A stretch of 6,836 bases of DNA from a virus: IMG/VR virus record IMGVR_UViG_3300029338_000118; one strand, given 5' to 3'. The position numbers and the translations under genes are program-made. The notes beneath the pieces were generated by a model that was not told where the DNA came from, ran no database searches, and worked only from the letters and a program-made list of their open reading frames with translations. Positions 1,572 through 6,242 of this stretch are shown here, piece by piece (positions within the stretch are counted from its first letter, which is position 1; every line of letters starts with the position of its first letter).

Positions 1572-1946
1572 ATGGCAAAGATTGTTTTTGTTCCACCTTT
1601 TGGTGAAGATTTGCAGCTTTCTTGCGTTGATGGCTGCTATGAGGTTTCCTCAGATATTAATGTACTGCTTAATCTTAATAAAAAAGCTCAAGATGTTCAC
1701 ACGGCTGAAAATGTTTTGGCACGTGTTCGTGAATTACCTCAGAATGATTCATCTGTTGATTTGTCTTCTGAAAGCGGTGCTCCAACACGTTTCTTTGATT
1801 CTCTTTCTGACCGCTTGGCGGTTGCTAAAAATGAGTTGAAGCGTTTGGATTCCGAGCAGGCAAAGTATAAGGATTCTGCTATGAAACGTGAAGCTTTTGA
1901 GCGTGTTAAGGCTCTTAAGAAAAAACTTGGTATTGAAAATTTGTAG
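1572..1946 (+). CDS. Hypothetical 124-aa protein between VP1 and VP2. It may be an internal scaffolding-type or other small virion-assembly protein.
   Basis: The ATG is 2 nt after the VP1 stop and its own stop is 3 nt before the VP2 ATG. Codon bias matches the neighbouring genes. The C-terminal third is a charged helical or coiled-coil-like segment (LAVAKNELKRLDSEQAKYKDSAMKREAFERVKALKKKL). I recognise no family signature; the function is guessed from position only. Confidence 0.6.
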   Translation: MAKIVFVPPFGEDLQLSCVDGCYEVSSDINVLLNLNKKAQDVHTAENVLARVRELPQNDSSVDLSSESGAPTRFFDSLSDRLAVAKNELKRLDSEQAKYKDSAMKREAFERVKALKKKLGIENL

Positions 1947-1949
1947 CTT

Positions 1950-3134
1950 ATGGATTGGGTTTCTCCTGTTTTAGGTGCTGGCGCGACTATTGCGTCAGCC
2001 CTAATTGGTGGTTCTTCTAAAGATAGCTCTTTGGCTGGTTCTTATATACCACCTAATAATAATAAAGTTACTTGGAAAGATGGACGTTTAGCGTATTATG
2101 ATCCTACAACAAACGAGACTTTTGATTATATGGATAATGCCACTAAGTCAAAAATTCCTAAGTCTGTTTATTGGTCAATTATGATGAATCAAGCAAACCA
2201 GATGTTTTCGGAAAAGATGTGGAATGCACAGAATGCTTATAATACACCTTTTAATCAGGCTCAACGTTTAAAGGCTGCTGGTCTTAATCCTTATTTAGCT
2301 ATGCAAAATGATGGTTCTATCGGTATGGCTGAATCTGCTTCTACTCCTTCCGGCTCTGCCGATATGTCTTCAGGTTCTGTAGATGCTTCTTTGGCTGCTT
2401 CACGAAGTCAATTAATTGGCTCTATGGGCAATATTTTGCAGTCTGCTTTTTCTAATATTAATCAACAGAAAATTGCTTCTGCACAAGCTGATAAATTGCA
2501 GTCTGAAACAGATTATCAGAATATTGTGAATAAATTTGCTATTACTGATATGATTACTAAGTTGCAACAACGTATGGCTGAAACGCATGACACTGAAGCT
2601 AGGAAACGTTATCAGGATATTATTAACTATGTTACCGATTCTTCTAAGGAATATTTTGTAGAGAAAAATCATTCTGATGCAGTAAATTCTTTAAATACTA
2701 CTCTTCTTCAAGAAGATGAGCATAATTTAAATGTTGCACGTTTGCGTTCTCAAAAGCTTGAGGGTGATTTGCTTGCTGTCAATTTATCTTGGCTTCCTAA
2801 AGAAAAAGCTGCCGGCATTGCTCAGGCTTATGCTCAGGCTTATGCTTCCACCTCTTCTGCAAAAGCTTCTGAACAAGCTGCTTTGAATTATGCTGCTGAT
2901 ACCTACGGCAAACAGTTTGACAATAAAATGCGTGATGAGTTACGTGCTGTTATTAAGAAGTCTGAACAGTCTCGTTATGATTCTCAACGTACTTCTCTTG
3001 ACGTTCTTAAAGAACAGCTTAGAGAAGCTAGAAAAAATAATAATACTTATGAAATTCGCCTTATTGGTGATATGATAGGTAAAATAACTGGTGGCTTCCA
3101 AAATTACGCTGTTGGTAAACATATGCTTAAATAG
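1950..3134 (+). CDS. VP2: Minor capsid / DNA pilot protein VP2 (functional analogue of phiX174 H).
   Basis: The product is 394 aa. It has a Gly/Ala-rich hydrophobic N-terminus (VSPVLGAGATIASALIGG). It carries the motif FNQAQRLKAAGLNPYLAM, matching the (R/K)xxxAGLNP motif typical of gokusho- and alpavirus VP2. The C-terminal half is long, Q/A/K/E-rich and predicted helical. Its position downstream of VP1 fits. Confidence 0.8.
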   Translation: MDWVSPVLGAGATIASALIGGSSKDSSLAGSYIPPNNNKVTWKDGRLAYYDPTTNETFDYMDNATKSKIPKSVYWSIMMNQANQMFSEKMWNAQNAYNTPFNQAQRLKAAGLNPYLAMQNDGSIGMAESASTPSGSADMSSGSVDASLAASRSQLIGSMGNILQSAFSNINQQKIASAQADKLQSETDYQNIVNKFAITDMITKLQQRMAETHDTEARKRYQDIINYVTDSSKEYFVEKNHSDAVNSLNTTLLQEDEHNLNVARLRSQKLEGDLLAVNLSWLPKEKAAGIAQAYAQAYASTSSAKASEQAALNYAADTYGKQFDNKMRDELRAVIKKSEQSRYDSQRTSLDVLKEQLREARKNNNTYEIRLIGDMIGKITGGFQNYAVGKHMLK

Positions 3135-3164
3135 TTTCTTGTTTTTGATTTTCTTATATCGTTA

Positions 3165-3199
3165 GCCGTTTGTCTACTATTGTAGGCAGACGGCTTTTT
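3165..3199 (+). terminator. Rho-independent terminator ending the long + strand transcription unit.
   Basis: The stem pairs gccgtttgtcta (3165-3176) with taggcagacggc (3183-3194), 12 bp including two G:U wobbles. The loop is ctattg and a TTTTT run follows at 3195-3199. It starts 31 nt after the VP2 stop. Confidence 0.8.
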
Positions 3200-3226
3200 G
3201 CATTTCTGTATTTCCTAATTTACTTA

Positions 3227-3280
3227 TCTAGATTCAGTATTTTATTTATTCATTTTATTTATTTATTACTGATTCTAGAT
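3227..3280. repeat. 13-bp imperfect inverted repeat bracketing a 28-nt pure A/T-plus-one-C tract of (TTTA/TTATT)n type.
   Basis: tctagattcagta (3227-3239) pairs with tactgattctaga (3268-3280), 12/13 complementary. The spacer is ttttatttattcattttatttatttatt. Confidence 0.7.
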
Positions 3281-3648
3281 TTTAAATTAGCTATCTAATC
3301 ATGCAGCTATTAAGCACTTTTTTAGTGCGCTGCCTTTACCTCTTGTTTAATATTGGTTGAAGTGACACCATAAATTTTCTGAACACTTCAACATGCTTGC
3401 CTTTAGTTTAGGCAAGTTTCTTTGTGCGAGTTTCCGCAGAAGGAAACGACAACCCATTATTTTAAACTCTATCCGTTAGGCTTCGATACCTATGAAAAAC
3501 ACTAGCCTTTTTGTTTCTTTTTGGGCAATGCCAAAAAGAAAACCCTCGGTAGAGCCCGCGGAGCGTAAATGCGCTCGGTTCCGCGCGCTAGGCGGAACTC
3601 AGGTTATAGGGCTGAAAGCCCTAATCGCCTATCCTCGCCAACTTTTGA

Positions 3649-3728
3649 GCGCAACATAATAGACGTTGCACAATCCGAAAATTGCACGCATGTGAATTTT
3701 CGTTTGTGTGACGTTTATTATGTTGTGC
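3649..3728 (+). repeat. Long imperfect hairpin: about 36 bp in 80 nt, in three helical segments with an apical 4-nt loop.
   Basis: 3649-3673 pairs with 3704-3728 (25 bp, four of them G:T). An internal loop follows, with t3674 and c3675 opposite t3703. 3676-3683 (cgaaaatt) pairs with 3695-3702 (aattttcg). 3685-3687 (cac) pairs with 3692-3694 (gtg) around the loop gcat. All non-canonical pairs are G:T, which would be C:A mismatches on the - strand. Confidence 0.85.
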
Positions 3729-3733
3729 GTTCG

Positions 3734-3740
3734 GCGAAGC
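3734..3740 (+). repeat. GCGAAGC mini-hairpin motif, copy 1 (context cGGCGAAGC). It sits immediately 3' of the long hairpin.
   Basis: The exact heptamer gcgaagc is at 3734-3740. The same GGCGAAGC octamer recurs at 3845-3852 and 3862-3869. Confidence 0.7.
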
Positions 3741-3752
3741 AGAAAATGGACA

Positions 3753-3805
3753 ATAATTTAGTCGTTTAAATTGCGACGAAGGAGCCTTTTAAACGTCTAA
3801 ATTAT
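3753..3805 (+). repeat. Second long hairpin: an 18-nt inverted repeat with one mismatch and a 17-nt loop.
   Basis: ataatttagtcgtttaaa (3753-3770) pairs with tttaaacgtctaaattat (3788-3805). 17 of 18 positions are complementary, with a t3762/t3796 mismatch. The loop is ttgcgacgaaggagcct. Confidence 0.8.
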
Positions 3806-3843
3806 GTTCATTTTCACATTTCCGTTGGTCGAACACTCAAGCT

Positions 3844-3878
3844 TGGCGAAGCTGTTAAGCTGGCGAAGCCAGTTAAAT
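3844..3878 (+). repeat. Tandem 17/18-nt direct repeat, each unit carrying a GGCGAAGC (GCGAAGC mini-hairpin) core.
   Basis: Unit A is tggcgaagc-t-gttaa-gc (3844-3860) and unit B is tggcgaagc-ca-gttaa-at (3861-3878). The GCGAAGC cores are at 3846-3852 and 3863-3869. Unit B extends to a 5-bp stem, ctggc GAA gccag (3860-3872). Unit A can alternatively fold as agctt/aagct (3840-3853). Confidence 0.75.
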
Positions 3879-3951
3879 TGTTGTTTATGTTAAAGCAATA
3901 CAAATTAATATAAAATTCGTTATTATATTATCGGTTATTATTTTTTTTAAT

Positions 3952-3959
3952 TATCTTTG
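3952..3959 (+). promoter_or_regulatory. Bacteroidota-type -7 promoter element (TAnnTTTG) for the whole + strand gene block.
   Basis: tatctttg at 3952-3959 matches the TAnnTTTG consensus of Bacteroides primary-sigma promoters. A ~55-nt very AT-rich tract precedes it. It lies 57 nt upstream of the first ATG (4016) and is the only such motif between the terminator and the first gene. I found no clean -33 TTTG at the expected spacing. Confidence 0.5.
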
Positions 3960-4015
3960 CGCCAGTTTTGAAGGTTGTTATACCTTATTGTTCTTTGACT
4001 TATTGTTACAAAATT

Positions 4016-4381
4016 ATGACTTCACATTTAACACTTGTTCGTATTAAGACTTCCTCGTCTTTGGATTCTATTCAAGGAGAGTTGTATGTCAATGGTTTGT
4101 TCTTCTGTCATACGATAGAAAGATTAAGTAAGGCAGTCCCTAAGGGCTGCTATCCTCTCGGTGTCTCTTACTCACCGCGTTTTAAGACACGTTTGCCTTA
4201 TTTGTCTGTTCCTCATCGCAAAGGTATTCGCATTCATGCTGGTAATACCGCAAAGGACTCTCAGGGCTGCATTCTTGTCGGTAAGTTAGATGATTGTTTT
4301 ACTATTATTAATTCACGTTTAACGTTGAAAAAACTTCTTTCATCGTCAGACTATTCATTTCATTCAATAATTATTAAGTAG
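4016..4381 (+). CDS. DUF5675-like protein with a YkuD (L,D-transpeptidase)-like His...Ser-x-Gly-Cys motif. It is a candidate cell-wall-acting or lysis enzyme.
   Basis: The product is 121 aa from the ATG at 4016; the track's 3968 start is a TTG inside promoter DNA and is unlikely. The pattern G-x-L-x-x-N-G-x-x-x-C-x-T-I-E ... P-x-G-x-Y-P-L ... S-P-R-F ... V-P-x-R-x-G-I-R-I-H-A-G-N ... S-Q-G-C-I-L-V-G follows the layout I remember for the phage and Bacteroidota DUF5675 family. The segment IHAGN-x(5)-SQGCILV resembles the YkuD catalytic HG-x(n)-S-x-GC[IV] motif. This family assignment is from memory and was not searched. Confidence 0.65.
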   Translation: MTSHLTLVRIKTSSSLDSIQGELYVNGLFFCHTIERLSKAVPKGCYPLGVSYSPRFKTRLPYLSVPHRKGIRIHAGNTAKDSQGCILVGKLDDCFTIINSRLTLKKLLSSSDYSFHSIIIK

Positions 4382-4382
4382 T

Positions 4383-4481
4383 ATGGATAAAAAGACTATT
4401 TGGAATATTGTTTTTAAAGTTGCTATGTATGCACTTGGTTTGCTCACTGGTGTAACTGCTTCTGCTGCCAATTTGCTTTAG
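4383..4481 (+). CDS. 32-aa small membrane peptide, a candidate holin-like or membrane partner of the upstream enzyme. It is too short to appear in the ORF track.
   Basis: The ATG is 1 nt after the previous stop (tagtATG) and its own stop is 18 nt before the Rep ATG. My translation is MDKKTIWNIVFKVAMYALGLLTGVTASAANLL, a charged N-terminus followed by about 20 hydrophobic residues. It fills an otherwise unexplained gap in a tightly packed operon. Confidence 0.45.
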   Translation: MDKKTIWNIVFKVAMYALGLLTGVTASAANLL

Positions 4482-4499: not shown

Positions 4500-6242
4500 A
4501 TGTGTCAGAATCTTCCTTTTACTAAGTGTCTTCACCCTGTTAAGGTGAGGACACTTAGAGGTATTCAACTTGTTAAGTGTGGTAAGTGTCCTGCTTGTGA
4601 AAATGCTTTGCGTTCTGAACTTCGTGCAAAGGTACAATTTGAAGAAAATAATGCACTTGCTTGTTTTTTTATTACAAACACATATTCAGATGCTAATCTT
4701 CCTTTGTTTTGTTTACGTAATGATTTGATTGAAGATAGCGATAAGCAATATAGTAAATCAGGCTCTACTATTGATGATGAGTTTTATCGTTCTTATAAAT
4801 CTATTAATTATACAGATATTTATGGCGATAAGCATACTTTTGAAGGTTCTTTCTCACTTGCTTCTCGTAATGTTGGTTTTTTCCCTTTATCTGAACGCAT
4901 TCAGGAAGATAATTATAATAAAAAACTTGATTCTTGGTGTCTTGATTTAGATAATTCTATTTATTCACGTTGCATTCTTGCACATGCTTCTGATCATTTT
5001 GATAATTTGTTAGCTGCTTATCATTCTCAACTTGAAAGTAATGTTGCTAAGTGTCGTTCTTTAGGTGTTCGAAATCATTCTTTGTCTTGGTATGATTTTG
5101 TTGATAATAATTACCTTGAATTAGATCATTTAAATTGCGTTCCATTGCTTTATTATCCTGATTTGCAGCGTTTTATTAAACGTTTAAGAAAGTTAATTTC
5201 AAAATTATTTCCTTATGAAAAGATACGTTACTACGCTATTGGAGAGTACGGGACAAGTTCCTACCGTCCGCATTGGCATATCTTATTGTTCACCAACTCG
5301 GCTAAAGTTGCCTCTTGGCTGCAACAGTCCTTTTACAAAAATGATGTTCTTTCAACAAAAGATAGAACAATTAACGGCTCCTCTATTTTGGATTCGCTCT
5401 GGAAATATGGTACTTGTACTATTGATAAGACAGATGGCAAAGCTAGTGGATATATTTCAAACTATGTTGTTGGCACTTCTGTGCTCCCAGAGATACTTAC
5501 ACGGCTTGCTCCGCAAAAAACCTTCCACTCTGTTCGATTCGGTTGTCCGTACACGAAGAGTGAGGTCCGTGAGTTCTTTCTTGGACGAAATTATGAACGG
5601 TTCTCAACAATTGAATATGTCTTGCCTACAGACTGCACTTTGCAATCTCGTCCCTTATGGCGGTCGTATTACTCTTTGTTCTTCCCTCAATTTGTTGGAT
5701 TTAACTCTTTGCCTGATGAAGAAAAATATAGAGTACTTACGGTGTATCCCAAACTTGCCTCATGGTTCTTCGAAACTAATGTAAGTGAACTTGCACGTAA
5801 GATTTATTTTCGTTGTATCGCCCCCTATCGAAAAGGTAAGGTACTTGATGAAGTTAGTGCACAAATCGCTAAGTTTTTTGATTGGTTTGATTGGTCTTCT
5901 GGTACTTCTTTAACACTCTCACCACTTCTTGGTGTGCTTTATGCTTCTAAGCGGTTTTTATCCATTTCTTCCGATTTTGGCTTTACCCCTCGACAGTATT
6001 TTGATATATGGCGTGATTTTGTCAATTGGCGTGATTATAAGTGTCTAGTACAACATTTAAATGATTGCCGTACAAATGAAATTTATCTTAATTGTTATTA
6101 TAAAATTTATTCGGGTACTGATATTTCTTTTGATTACTTAAATGATTCTGCTTTATTTAAAACATTCCGTTATGACGCTTTACGTACTAATCAACGGCTT
6201 GTTAAACATAAGGCTTTTGTTGAACAACTTAAAGGTATTTAA
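4500..6242 (+). CDS. VP4: Rolling-circle replication initiation protein VP4 (HUH endonuclease, phiX174 A-like).
   Basis: The product is 580 aa from the ATG at 4500; the track's 4491 start is a TTG. The N-terminal Cys cluster is CLHPVKV...VKCGKCPACENALRSELRAKV. Motif 1 is CFFITNTYSD, of FxTLTY type. Motif 2 (HUH) is YRPHWHILLF. Motif 3 is SGYISNYVVG, with two Tyr spaced YxxxY as in phiX174 A protein. The length fits the long alpavirus-type Rep. Confidence 0.9.
   Translation: MCQNLPFTKCLHPVKVRTLRGIQLVKCGKCPACENALRSELRAKVQFEENNALACFFITNTYSDANLPLFCLRNDLIEDSDKQYSKSGSTIDDEFYRSYKSINYTDIYGDKHTFEGSFSLASRNVGFFPLSERIQEDNYNKKLDSWCLDLDNSIYSRCILAHASDHFDNLLAAYHSQLESNVAKCRSLGVRNHSLSWYDFVDNNYLELDHLNCVPLLYYPDLQRFIKRLRKLISKLFPYEKIRYYAIGEYGTSSYRPHWHILLFTNSAKVASWLQQSFYKNDVLSTKDRTINGSSILDSLWKYGTCTIDKTDGKASGYISNYVVGTSVLPEILTRLAPQKTFHSVRFGCPYTKSEVREFFLGRNYERFSTIEYVLPTDCTLQSRPLWRSYYSLFFPQFVGFNSLPDEEKYRVLTVYPKLASWFFETNVSELARKIYFRCIAPYRKGKVLDEVSAQIAKFFDWFDWSSGTSLTLSPLLGVLYASKRFLSISSDFGFTPRQYFDIWRDFVNWRDYKCLVQHLNDCRTNEIYLNCYYKIYSGTDISFDYLNDSALFKTFRYDALRTNQRLVKHKAFVEQLKGI

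Follow-up and report, generated by a model that had tools for sequence, protein, structure and literature searches.

A folded, exchangeable non-coding cassette on the packaged strand of a gut microvirus, with a possible role in complementary-strand priming

The window analysed here is a stretch of 6,836 nucleotides (nt) (IMG/VR virus record IMGVR_UViG_3300029338_000118) that contains a complete circular microvirus; its first 138 nt recur at its end, and this terminal redundancy leaves a genome of 6,698 nt. The + strand carries every gene (Table 1), and the spacers between genes are 1 to 18 nt long. Set against these is a non-coding block of 881 nt (positions 3135 to 4015), which makes up 13% of the genome, and the subject of this report is the structured element of ~450 nt at its centre. 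An earlier note on this DNA had described the block as an oversized segment without an open reading frame (ORF) of phage-like codon usage, and its description is largely borne out. The small ORFs in the block have no Pfam or PHROG match, and their reading frame differs among homologues. A hidden protein gene at ORFs 3492-3659 and 3569-3769 was considered and rejected: neither has a PHROG match, the frames shift between homologues, and the invariant sequence ATGAAAAACAC shows no synonymous variation, which argues that it is not constrained as a string of codons. A search of the window for tRNA and tmRNA genes found none. The terminator that the note had placed upstream in the block and the promoter motif TATCTTTG at 3952 are both present, as is the local loss of T skew that it had noticed (T makes up 29% of the element versus 37.5% of coding DNA). 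Its figure of ~57% G+C across ~570 nt was overstated, however; G+C content is 44% in 3400-3880 and 53% in 3500-3650, and reaches 60% only in 3540-3640.

Homologues were sought by BLAST against GenBank phages and by scans of IMG/VR and metagenomes, and the segment from 3423 to 3872 was found in many microviruses from pig and human gut samples. The edges of the element are sharp: it always starts with GTGCGAG and runs via GTTGGTCGAACACTC to one or two GCGAAGC hairpins. Copies are 64 to 96% identical to one another, and identities of 64 to 85% are found between genomes whose coding DNA is at most 70% identical or cannot be aligned, the Rep proteins of these distant carriers being only 26 to 34% identical to the Rep of the window. 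Within the lineage of the window the trend is the opposite one: L143 (Rep identity 93%, genome identity 95%) carries the full element, L147 (Rep identity 86%) has a copy truncated within long hairpin 1 (hereafter hairpin 1), and MT135341, L292 and L293 (Rep identity 70 to 73%) carry a mini-core alone. Whole hairpins or hairpin blocks are present, absent or swapped for unrelated ones among carriers. This hairpin-wise presence, absence and replacement, together with an element identity that exceeds that of coding DNA and Rep, identifies the element, as judged by sequence comparison, as a modular cassette passed on horizontally among phages that are only distantly related. The cassette also appears to be linked to the host, being exchanged by unrelated phages of the same gut bacterium. 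Its position is constant: in every microvirus examined it lies between the pilot-protein gene and an attachment (att) site, in the same orientation. In one carrier (L015, ~3125-3440) the 5' part of the element has been replaced, and the core is flanked by a 25-nt direct repeat, CTGAGCGCAACATAATAGACG.TATGAC, whose sequence is that of the hairpin 1 5' arm; the rearrangement looks like recombination or template switching at hairpin 1.

At least 12 stem-loops lie in the block, in agreement with the dozen or so counted in the earlier note, and the segment 3423-3875 folds far better than shuffled controls. With RNA parameters its folding energy is -179.1 kcal/mol on the + strand (z = -9.0) and -161.3 kcal/mol on the - strand (z = -8.5), and with DNA parameters the corresponding values are -101.4 and -96.8 kcal/mol, so that the + strand is better by 18 kcal/mol and 4.6 kcal/mol, respectively, a modest difference. 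Covariation was assessed in 39 distinct copies of the element, for which RNAalifold predicted 95 base pairs, 91 of them re-counted. Across these 91 pairs, 98.9% of cells were paired, against 90.8% in shuffles, and both-sided (compensatory) changes were seen at 42 pairs, against 20.3; none of 500 shuffles matched the observed values by any measure. When the partners were slid by 1 to 3 columns, at most 46.8% of cells were paired and at most 13 pairs had both-sided changes. Relatives of the window phage thus carry conserved equivalents of the element in which pairing is maintained by compensation. The cells at paired positions in the 39 copies included 239 G:T and 8 A:C, and at five positions G:T was found in the majority of copies. 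The G:T asymmetry that had been traced by eye in two hairpins of the window therefore holds across homologues, and it indicates that the fold exists on the + strand only. Overall, the covariation, the asymmetry between G:T and A:C, and the strand-specific loop motifs described below strongly support the view, put forward in the earlier note, that selection acts on the single-strand structure of the + strand rather than on duplex sites for proteins. A predicted closing helix pairs GTGCGA (3424-3429) with TCGAACAC (3829-3836), and because it is invariant, covariation speaks neither for nor against it.

Searches of Rfam 15 with the window, a short stretch of it (to E <= 10) and the bacterial repeats described below gave no family match, the sole hits, to models of microRNAs and snoRNAs, being of a generic hairpin kind and far under the gathering threshold; this is consistent with the failure of the earlier note to place the island by eye. 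The 5' GTGCG behind a terminator-like hairpin prompted us to consider an ORF-less group II intron, which was rejected because there was no match to Intron_gpII or D1-D4 models at E <= 10; inspection of the element for the 34-nt domain V of such introns also found none.

Since the + strand is packaged and is also of mRNA sense, strand specificity cannot decide between folded DNA and folded RNA. The loops of the element are more informative. Per element there are 2.51 copies of GCGNAGC, against 0.21 +/- 0.06 in dinucleotide shuffles (a 12-fold enrichment), and 4.90 of CGNAG, against 1.99 +/- 0.21, whereas GNRA-type CGNRAG is depleted (0.33 per element, against 1.20 in shuffles) and UNCG loops are absent from the element copies. 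For the reverse complement of CGNAG the figure is only 0.77 per element. There are three aligned CGNAG sites at which nearly all copies vary at N alone, and the four GCGNAGC sites of the window genome all fall inside the element. Across 19 genomes of the clade, CGNAG on the + strand is seven-fold denser in the non-coding block (4.98 per kb) than elsewhere (0.69 per kb), and its complement is not enriched (1.75 versus 2.17 per kb). GCGNAGC and GCGNNAGC, with any base at N, form extraordinarily stable DNA mini-hairpins that are poorly bound by single-stranded-DNA-binding protein (SSB), and such mini-hairpins mark priming or initiation sites in G4, St-1, alpha3, RSF1010 ssiA and the N4 hairpin promoters (PMC13037366). 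The loops of the element obey this DNA mini-hairpin rule rather than the rules for RNA tetraloops.

Transcription signals point in the same direction. The Bacteroidota-type promoter motif TAnnTTTG was not found within 70 nt 5' of the element in any of the 39 copies, and the nearest + strand motifs in the window lie at 2531 and 3952. A strong hairpin followed by a T-rich run always stands directly 5' of the element, and hairpins with weak T tails lie 3' of it, in the window and in relatives. The terminator-type hairpins on the 5' side, the lack of TAnnTTTG within 70 nt and the distance of the nearest motifs suggest that the element is probably not a transcription unit, and together the loop signature, the transcription signals and the absence of an Rfam match lead us to favour DNA over RNA.

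Near the 5' end of the element, the block ATAC-Y-T-ATGAAAAACAC (3486-3502) is invariant across the clade of microviruses with a large Rep. Of 24 IMG/VR genomes of this clade, within which Rep identity spans 25% to 93%, 21 have exactly one copy of ATGAAAAACAC itself (3492-3502), which lies on the coding strand; the neighbouring clades lack it. As an invariant, clade-specific, single-stranded block between hairpins, it is a candidate for the Rep nick or binding site and hence for the viral-strand origin, a role that we put forward as a lead and not as a result. Its similarity to the phiX174 origin is only slight (shared AACACTA). The invariant block in the 3' part of the element was also considered as the Rep origin and was ruled out, since short forms of the element do not contain it.

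The hairpin at 3514-3541 connects the element with bacterial chromosomes. The 20-mer CTTTTGGGCAATGCCAAAAG, which forms the top of this hairpin, matched at least 120 stretches in a scan of bacterial genomes (labelled L023-L142, e.g., L028, L043, L044, L046 and L104), and among the matches listed are Dysgonomonas, with dozens of copies per genome, Prevotella, Alistipes, Xanthomonadales, Burkholderiales, Saccharibacteria, Chloroflexota, Verrucomicrobiota and others. Within the same set of listed matches, 108 of 121 scorable copies have the leader YWRGMYTTT, and 112 of 121 have an outer stem of at least 4 bp, made up of 25 different stem sequences. The bacterial copies lie in ORF-less, multi-copy, highly structured repeats of 300 to 650 nt that have the CTAGCCTTTTG leader and no Rfam match. 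No recurrent neighbouring gene or transposase was found beside them, except for tandem tyrosine recombinases in Chloroflexota, where the hairpin lies 44 to 124 nt 3' of two such genes (L033, L087, L098, L127 and L141). Homology between the phage element and the bacterial repeats is limited to ~45 nt, and neither the full phage element nor its 3' domain occurs in 185,579 bacterial and archaeal species genomes; three genome matches to ATGAAAAACACTAGCYTTTT were attributed to chance. One chromosomal intergenic copy, at 5240-5340 of L122 (Agriterribacter sp.), is nearer to the phage version (CCTATGAAACACCTAGCC, then the hairpin) than the other bacterial copies are, and no microvirus genes were found near it. 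A literature search on the 20-mer, on structured RNAs of microviruses and on Dysgonomonas repeats returned nothing relevant. We suggest, tentatively and with more doubt than confidence, that the CTTTTGGGCAATGCCAAAAG hairpin, with its CTAGCCTTTTG leader and covarying base, is the part by which a class of structured single-stranded nucleic-acid elements, spread across phyla, is recognized, and of this class the microvirus cassette would be a phage-borne member recruiting the same universally conserved host factor. Such a class may comprise ORF-less, multi-copy elements in chromosomes from Bacteroidota to Saccharibacteria and Pseudomonadota. At 3503-3538 of the window and in homologues L150-L153, the T run of the leader (GCCTTTTG), the T run of the 5' arm and the A run of the 3' arm shorten together, from 4 to 3, which suggests alternative pairing or a three-strand interaction.

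Relatives of the window phage are found as integrated prophages. The L013 provirus is bounded on either side by a 14-nt direct repeat, CATAATACCGGTTA, set inside a dif-like 28-mer, and the right-hand host flank recurs in gut contigs of 84 kb as well as in many short ones whose ends fall within the flank. The empty site, CTATTTACC-ATAATACCGGTTA-GAATTAAAAAGAGG, was found in 14 Segatella copri genomes and represents one intergenic site of the Segatella copri complex. One prophage-bearing genome, L283 (CAVBFV010000077.1), was binned as Lachnospiraceae; it has the Segatella copri attB flank and is probably mis-binned. The integrated relatives carry no integrase gene, and L013, L283, L235 and L236 all show the features expected of dif/Xer proviruses, namely direct repeats within a dif-like site, empty sites and no integrase. 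The phage site, CGTTTACATAA-TACCGG-TTATAACAAAA, is likewise dif-like, which accords with an earlier suggestion that Bacteroidetes microviruses integrate by means of XerC/XerD (PMC3091885); in these viruses Krupovic and Forterre also described a further dif-like sequence close to one end of the provirus (PMC3091885). In many contigs the att core is present twice, 6.2 to 6.6 kb apart, as attL and attR. The nhmmer match overshoots the element by ~35 nt, and in nearly all long-form carriers the core is found a further 129 to 135 nt on (155 in some), counted from where that match ends. The window's own site has diverged, and no integrated copy of the window phage was found. In the public contig L013/L167, the last 50 nt (reverse strand) include Nextera adapter sequence (…AGATGTGTATAAGAGACAG), an assembly artefact.

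Crossover in the prophages takes place at the linear core, hairpin 1 is intact inside the prophage, and no inverted copy of the att core able to pair with it was found; the CTXphi model of a folded attP therefore does not apply. AACATAATAGACGTT, which forms the 5' arm of hairpin 1, is similar to the att core of relatives, and hairpin 1 was considered as the true Xer site and rejected, because changes in the supposed arm are compensated and crossover occurs elsewhere. The attachment site thus adjoins the structured island and is distinct from it. A recombination site for lysogeny, one of the roles suggested for the island in the earlier note, accordingly exists as a dif-like core, but it lies 3' of the island and leaves the hairpin whole.

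The features of the non-coding block are collected in Table 1, together with the genes of the window. Those on the 5' side of the element belong in part to the lineage of the window itself: the inverted repeat at 3226-3280 is kept in L143 and L147, and the hairpin at 3356-3392 has a counterpart with 90% identity in MT135341. Other carriers have, in place of 3395-3422, a different G:T-containing hairpin with a T-rich run. In L011, L013, L150, L236 and others, a 12-bp hairpin of alternating purines and pyrimidines, TGCGCGCGTGCG ATTTA CGTACGTGCGCA, with two G:T pairs and then TTTATTTT, lies 5' of the element; it is terminator-like and prone to form Z-DNA. The hairpin of the terminator behind the pilot-protein gene was likened, by eye only, to a CRISPR repeat or Cas12a-type hairpin. 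A lambda boxB-like hairpin at 3607-3623 was dropped, as its orientation and loop differ.

Table 1. Genes of the window and features of its non-coding block, in window coordinates
Feature	Position	Strand	Remarks
Capsid protein, F-type (Pfam Phage_F)	from 6249 across the junction to 1569	+	Pfam
124-aa protein	1572-1946	+	
Pilot protein	1950-3134	+	
Intrinsic terminator 3' of the pilot-protein gene	3164-3199 (hairpin to 3195)	+	14-bp stem, two G:T pairs, then T run
A+T-rich inverted repeat	3226-3280	+	14-nt arms enclosing two tandem 13-nt repeats
Perfect 9-bp hairpin GTTGAAGTG/CACTTCAAC	3356-3392	+	
Terminator-like hairpin and TTTCTTT	3395-3422 (hairpin 3395-3417)	+	Abuts 5' edge of element
Conserved structured element, long form, ~450 nt	3424-3875	+	Most conserved segment of the genome across carriers
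Predicted closing helix, 5' strand GTGCGA	3424-3429	+	Invariant; predicted partner 3829-3836
Hairpin P2	3430-3447	+	Three pairs covary
Invariant single-stranded block ATACCTATGAAAAACACTAGCC, candidate viral-strand origin	3486-3507	+	
Hairpin with invariant top TTTTGGGCAATGCCAAAA, covarying base and leader CTAGCCTTTTG	3514-3541	+	Module also in bacterial repeats
Exchangeable middle block, four small hairpins	3545-3629	+	CTC-GGTA-GAG; GAGCG..CGCTC; GGTTCCGC..GCGGAAC; TAGGGC..GCCCTA then AATCGCC. Replaced by two unrelated hairpin sets in other carriers
Long hairpin 1	3649-3728	+	35 predicted pairs, 15 compensated, four conserved G:T
GCGAAGC mini-hairpin, site 1	3734-3740	+	Aligned CGNAG: 38 of 39 copies vary only at N
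Long hairpin 2	3742-3815	+	29 pairs, 15 compensated; tip is a C-GNA-G loop
Near-invariant block TTTTCACATTTCCGTTGGTCGAACACTCAAGC	3811-3842	+	Includes 3' strand of closing helix (3829-3836)
Two GCGAAGC mini-hairpins	3843-3874	+	Outer stems covary in relatives (CTGG/CCAG vs CGTG/CACG)
dif-like attachment-site candidate, diverged, TCGTTATTATATTATCGGTTATTATTTT	3917-3944	+	Counterpart of att core CATAATACCGGTTA flanking integrated relatives
Bacteroidota-type -7 promoter motif TATCTTTG, 5' of DUF5675 gene	3952-3959	+	
DUF5675 protein, between promoter and Rep	4016-4381	+	Pfam E = 2.4e-24
32-aa hydrophobic protein, between promoter and Rep	4383-4481	+	
Rep	4500-6242	+	

We propose that 3424-3875 is a host-dependent, swappable, folded single-stranded-DNA signal of the packaged + strand, at which complementary-strand synthesis would be primed, and we give this proposal an even chance of being correct. 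After entry of the phage, host SSB would coat the circle except at the stable hairpin array, with its several GCGNAGC mini-hairpins. The folded array could then serve as the entry point for host priming enzymes, whether a primosome or primase by itself (the latter as at the G4/St-1/alpha3 origin), and priming there would start synthesis of the complementary strand. An element that depended on host proteins alone might behave as a cassette swapped hairpin by hairpin among unrelated microviruses of the same host, and this proposed dependence would account for the cassette behaviour described above. Together with the candidate viral-strand origin (3486-3502) and the dif-like site (3917-3944), the element would form one control region, much like the intergenic region of filamentous phages. 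Of the three roles suggested in the earlier note (a complementary-strand origin, a recombination site for lysogeny and a structured non-coding RNA), the first fits best, given the DNA-type loops, the terminator-type hairpins on the 5' side without a consensus promoter, and a host-linked cassette shared by phages whose Rep proteins differ widely.

Several points weigh against this proposal. Short and mini forms of the element are without the 3' half, that is, the two long hairpins and the invariant block, which makes that half dispensable, and a simple essential origin therefore cannot explain the long form. The spacing of the att core in nearly all long-form carriers hints at a link between the element and integration or excision. 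The bacterial repeats weaken a purely phage-origin reading of the hairpin at 3514-3541: chromosomes need no phage origin, so this invariant-top hairpin may bind some other conserved factor. That the + strand is the mRNA sense, that the ends are predicted to pair (3424-3429 with 3829-3836) and that the 5' edge is discrete are all features commonly seen in stable RNAs. RNA, too, could form GNA loops, and knowledge of Segatella promoters amounts to one consensus. Finally, the stems contain no Bacteroidota promoter mimic (TAnnTTTG occurs 0.31 times per element on the + strand and 0.36 times on the - strand, at no conserved place, and inspection of the 3' arms of the two long hairpins revealed none), so that priming by RNA polymerase, of the filamentous-phage or ssoA type, is unsupported.

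The strand, end and edge features just listed, together with strong covariation and conserved G:U pairs, would also suit a gene of ~450 nt for a structured non-coding RNA, transcribed in the course of infection or while the phage is integrated, possibly as an immunity, regulatory or anti-defence RNA against host factors. Hairpins with short T-containing tails lie 3' of the element in relatives, the end of a prophage is a common place for accessory cargo, and conservation that tracks the host rather than Rep would suit a host-directed RNA. We nevertheless consider such a gene unlikely, if not negligibly so: no Rfam family was matched even at the permissive threshold used for the short stretch, none of the 39 copies has the promoter motif within 70 nt and a terminator-type hairpin stands directly 5', the loops are the opposite of those of structured RNAs (GNRA depleted, UNCG absent, GCGNAGC enriched), and entire hairpin blocks are swapped for unrelated ones. 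The element might alternatively be an accessory or architectural part of Xer-type integration or excision, either a folded substrate or helper in the manner of CTXphi or a directionality sequence in the manner of cer and psi. Its spacing from the att core CATAATACCGGTTA, the attL/attR pairs, the empty sites in Segatella copri and the further dif-like sequence described close to one end of Bacteroidetes microvirus proviruses (PMC3091885) would fit such a part, as would a match at 12 of 14 positions, by eye, between the 5' arm of hairpin 1 and the att core, and the L015 rearrangement, whose direct repeat falls exactly at that arm. This we regard as improbable, because the prophage junctions are at the linear core with hairpin 1 intact, no inverted core is available for pairing, short and mini forms are likewise near att cores, and accessory sequences acting as duplex are not expected to show hairpin covariation. 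Moreover, in 5 of 39 copies CATAA in hairpin 1 has become CAAAA with a compensating change, which argues that it is pairing that is selected there and not a recombinase arm.

The element could also be selfish, hairpin-rich mobile DNA, resembling a miniature transposon that travels by a single-stranded-DNA route, and one that parasitizes microviruses and chromosomes without benefit to the phage, a view suggested by the hairpin module and leader that it has in common with the ORF-less, multi-copy bacterial repeats, by its patchy occurrence among close relatives and by an identity above that of the surrounding genome. Against this, all microviruses in which its place was examined have it at the same position and in the same orientation, no marks of a miniature transposable element (MITE or PATE) were found, whether target duplications, terminal inverted repeats or a transposase beside it, homology with the bacterial repeats covers only ~45 nt, the full element is missing from the 185,579 species genomes, and many unpaired blocks are invariant, which indicates function; we judge selfish DNA very improbable. 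A chimera of phage and host DNA produced during assembly would explain why local composition differs from that of the remaining genome, and it is almost certainly wrong. The element is present in more than 40 independent assemblies at the same genomic position, it is carried by L143, whose whole genome is 95% identical, its 3' domain has no match in the species genomes, and its boundaries are conserved to the nucleotide. No phage-host join was found, and the possibility of a chimera, which the earlier note had allowed for, is refuted.

In these genomes it is a cis-acting DNA cassette, and not a gene, that is best conserved and most freely exchanged, which is relevant to phage taxonomy, to the engineering of synthetic microviruses and to host prediction, the cassette and att core pointing here to the Segatella copri complex. 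The region gathers, within 500 nt, testable candidates for strand conversion, origins and lysogeny in gut microviruses outside the phiX174 group. The DNA-type loop signature offers a simple computational means of separating folded-DNA elements from RNA genes in single-stranded DNA viruses, and through the shared hairpin the non-coding DNA of phages is tied to a bacterial repeat family not described before.

Among known systems, the element can be compared with the oric regions of G4, St-1 and alpha3 and with RSF1010 ssiA, which are likewise intergenic clusters of stable hairpins on the packaged or transferred strand. Like these origins, the element carries mini-hairpins that resist SSB (GCGNNAGC, GCGNAGC or CCGAAGG), the GCGNAGC/GCGNNAGC type being the one described by the published rule (PMC13037366), and like them it would use host enzymes only, as we infer. 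It differs from them in that no sequence similarity is evident, in its length (~450 nt, three to four times theirs), and in being modular, exchanged between distant phages and partly dispensable.

The single-strand origins of rolling-circle plasmids (ssoA, ssoU, ssoT and ssoW) are folded DNAs of 150 to 300 nt that are strand- and orientation-specific and host-specific; they are cassettes swapped between replicons with unrelated Rep proteins, and they are non-essential but advantageous. The element resembles them in strand and orientation specificity, host specificity, cassette exchange across unrelated Rep proteins and, it would appear, in being non-essential but advantageous. ssoA acts via RNA polymerase and carries RSB and CS-6 motifs, whereas no promoter mimic and no RSB or CS-6 motif was found in the element, and the replicon here is a phage and not a plasmid. 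The intergenic region of M13, f1 and fd consists of ~500 nt of consecutive hairpins with several cis functions, including both origins. As in these filamentous phages, one non-coding hairpin block here combines cis functions, namely the candidate origins and the att site; the virus family is a different one, however, packaging hairpins play no role in microviruses, and the functions here are inferred and not mapped.

With respect to lysogeny, the closest parallel is with the dif/Xer microviruses of Bacteroidetes, which share with the relatives studied here proviruses flanked by direct repeats, the lack of an integrase and an additional dif-like sequence near one end (PMC3091885). The folded attP of CTXphi differs in that crossover here is outside the structured element and the hairpin is not split by integration. 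Finally, intergenic hairpins with conserved loops and compensatory stem changes have been described in reekeekee- and roodoodooviruses and tentatively tied to negative-strand initiation (PMC9865509), which we count as support for a role of our element in priming. Conserved loops and compensated stems in microvirus non-coding DNA are common to both cases, but the hairpins of those viruses are single and 13 to 64 nt long, whereas the element described here unites many hairpins in one closed domain of ~450 nt, has blocks that are exchangeable and shares a module with bacterial repeats.

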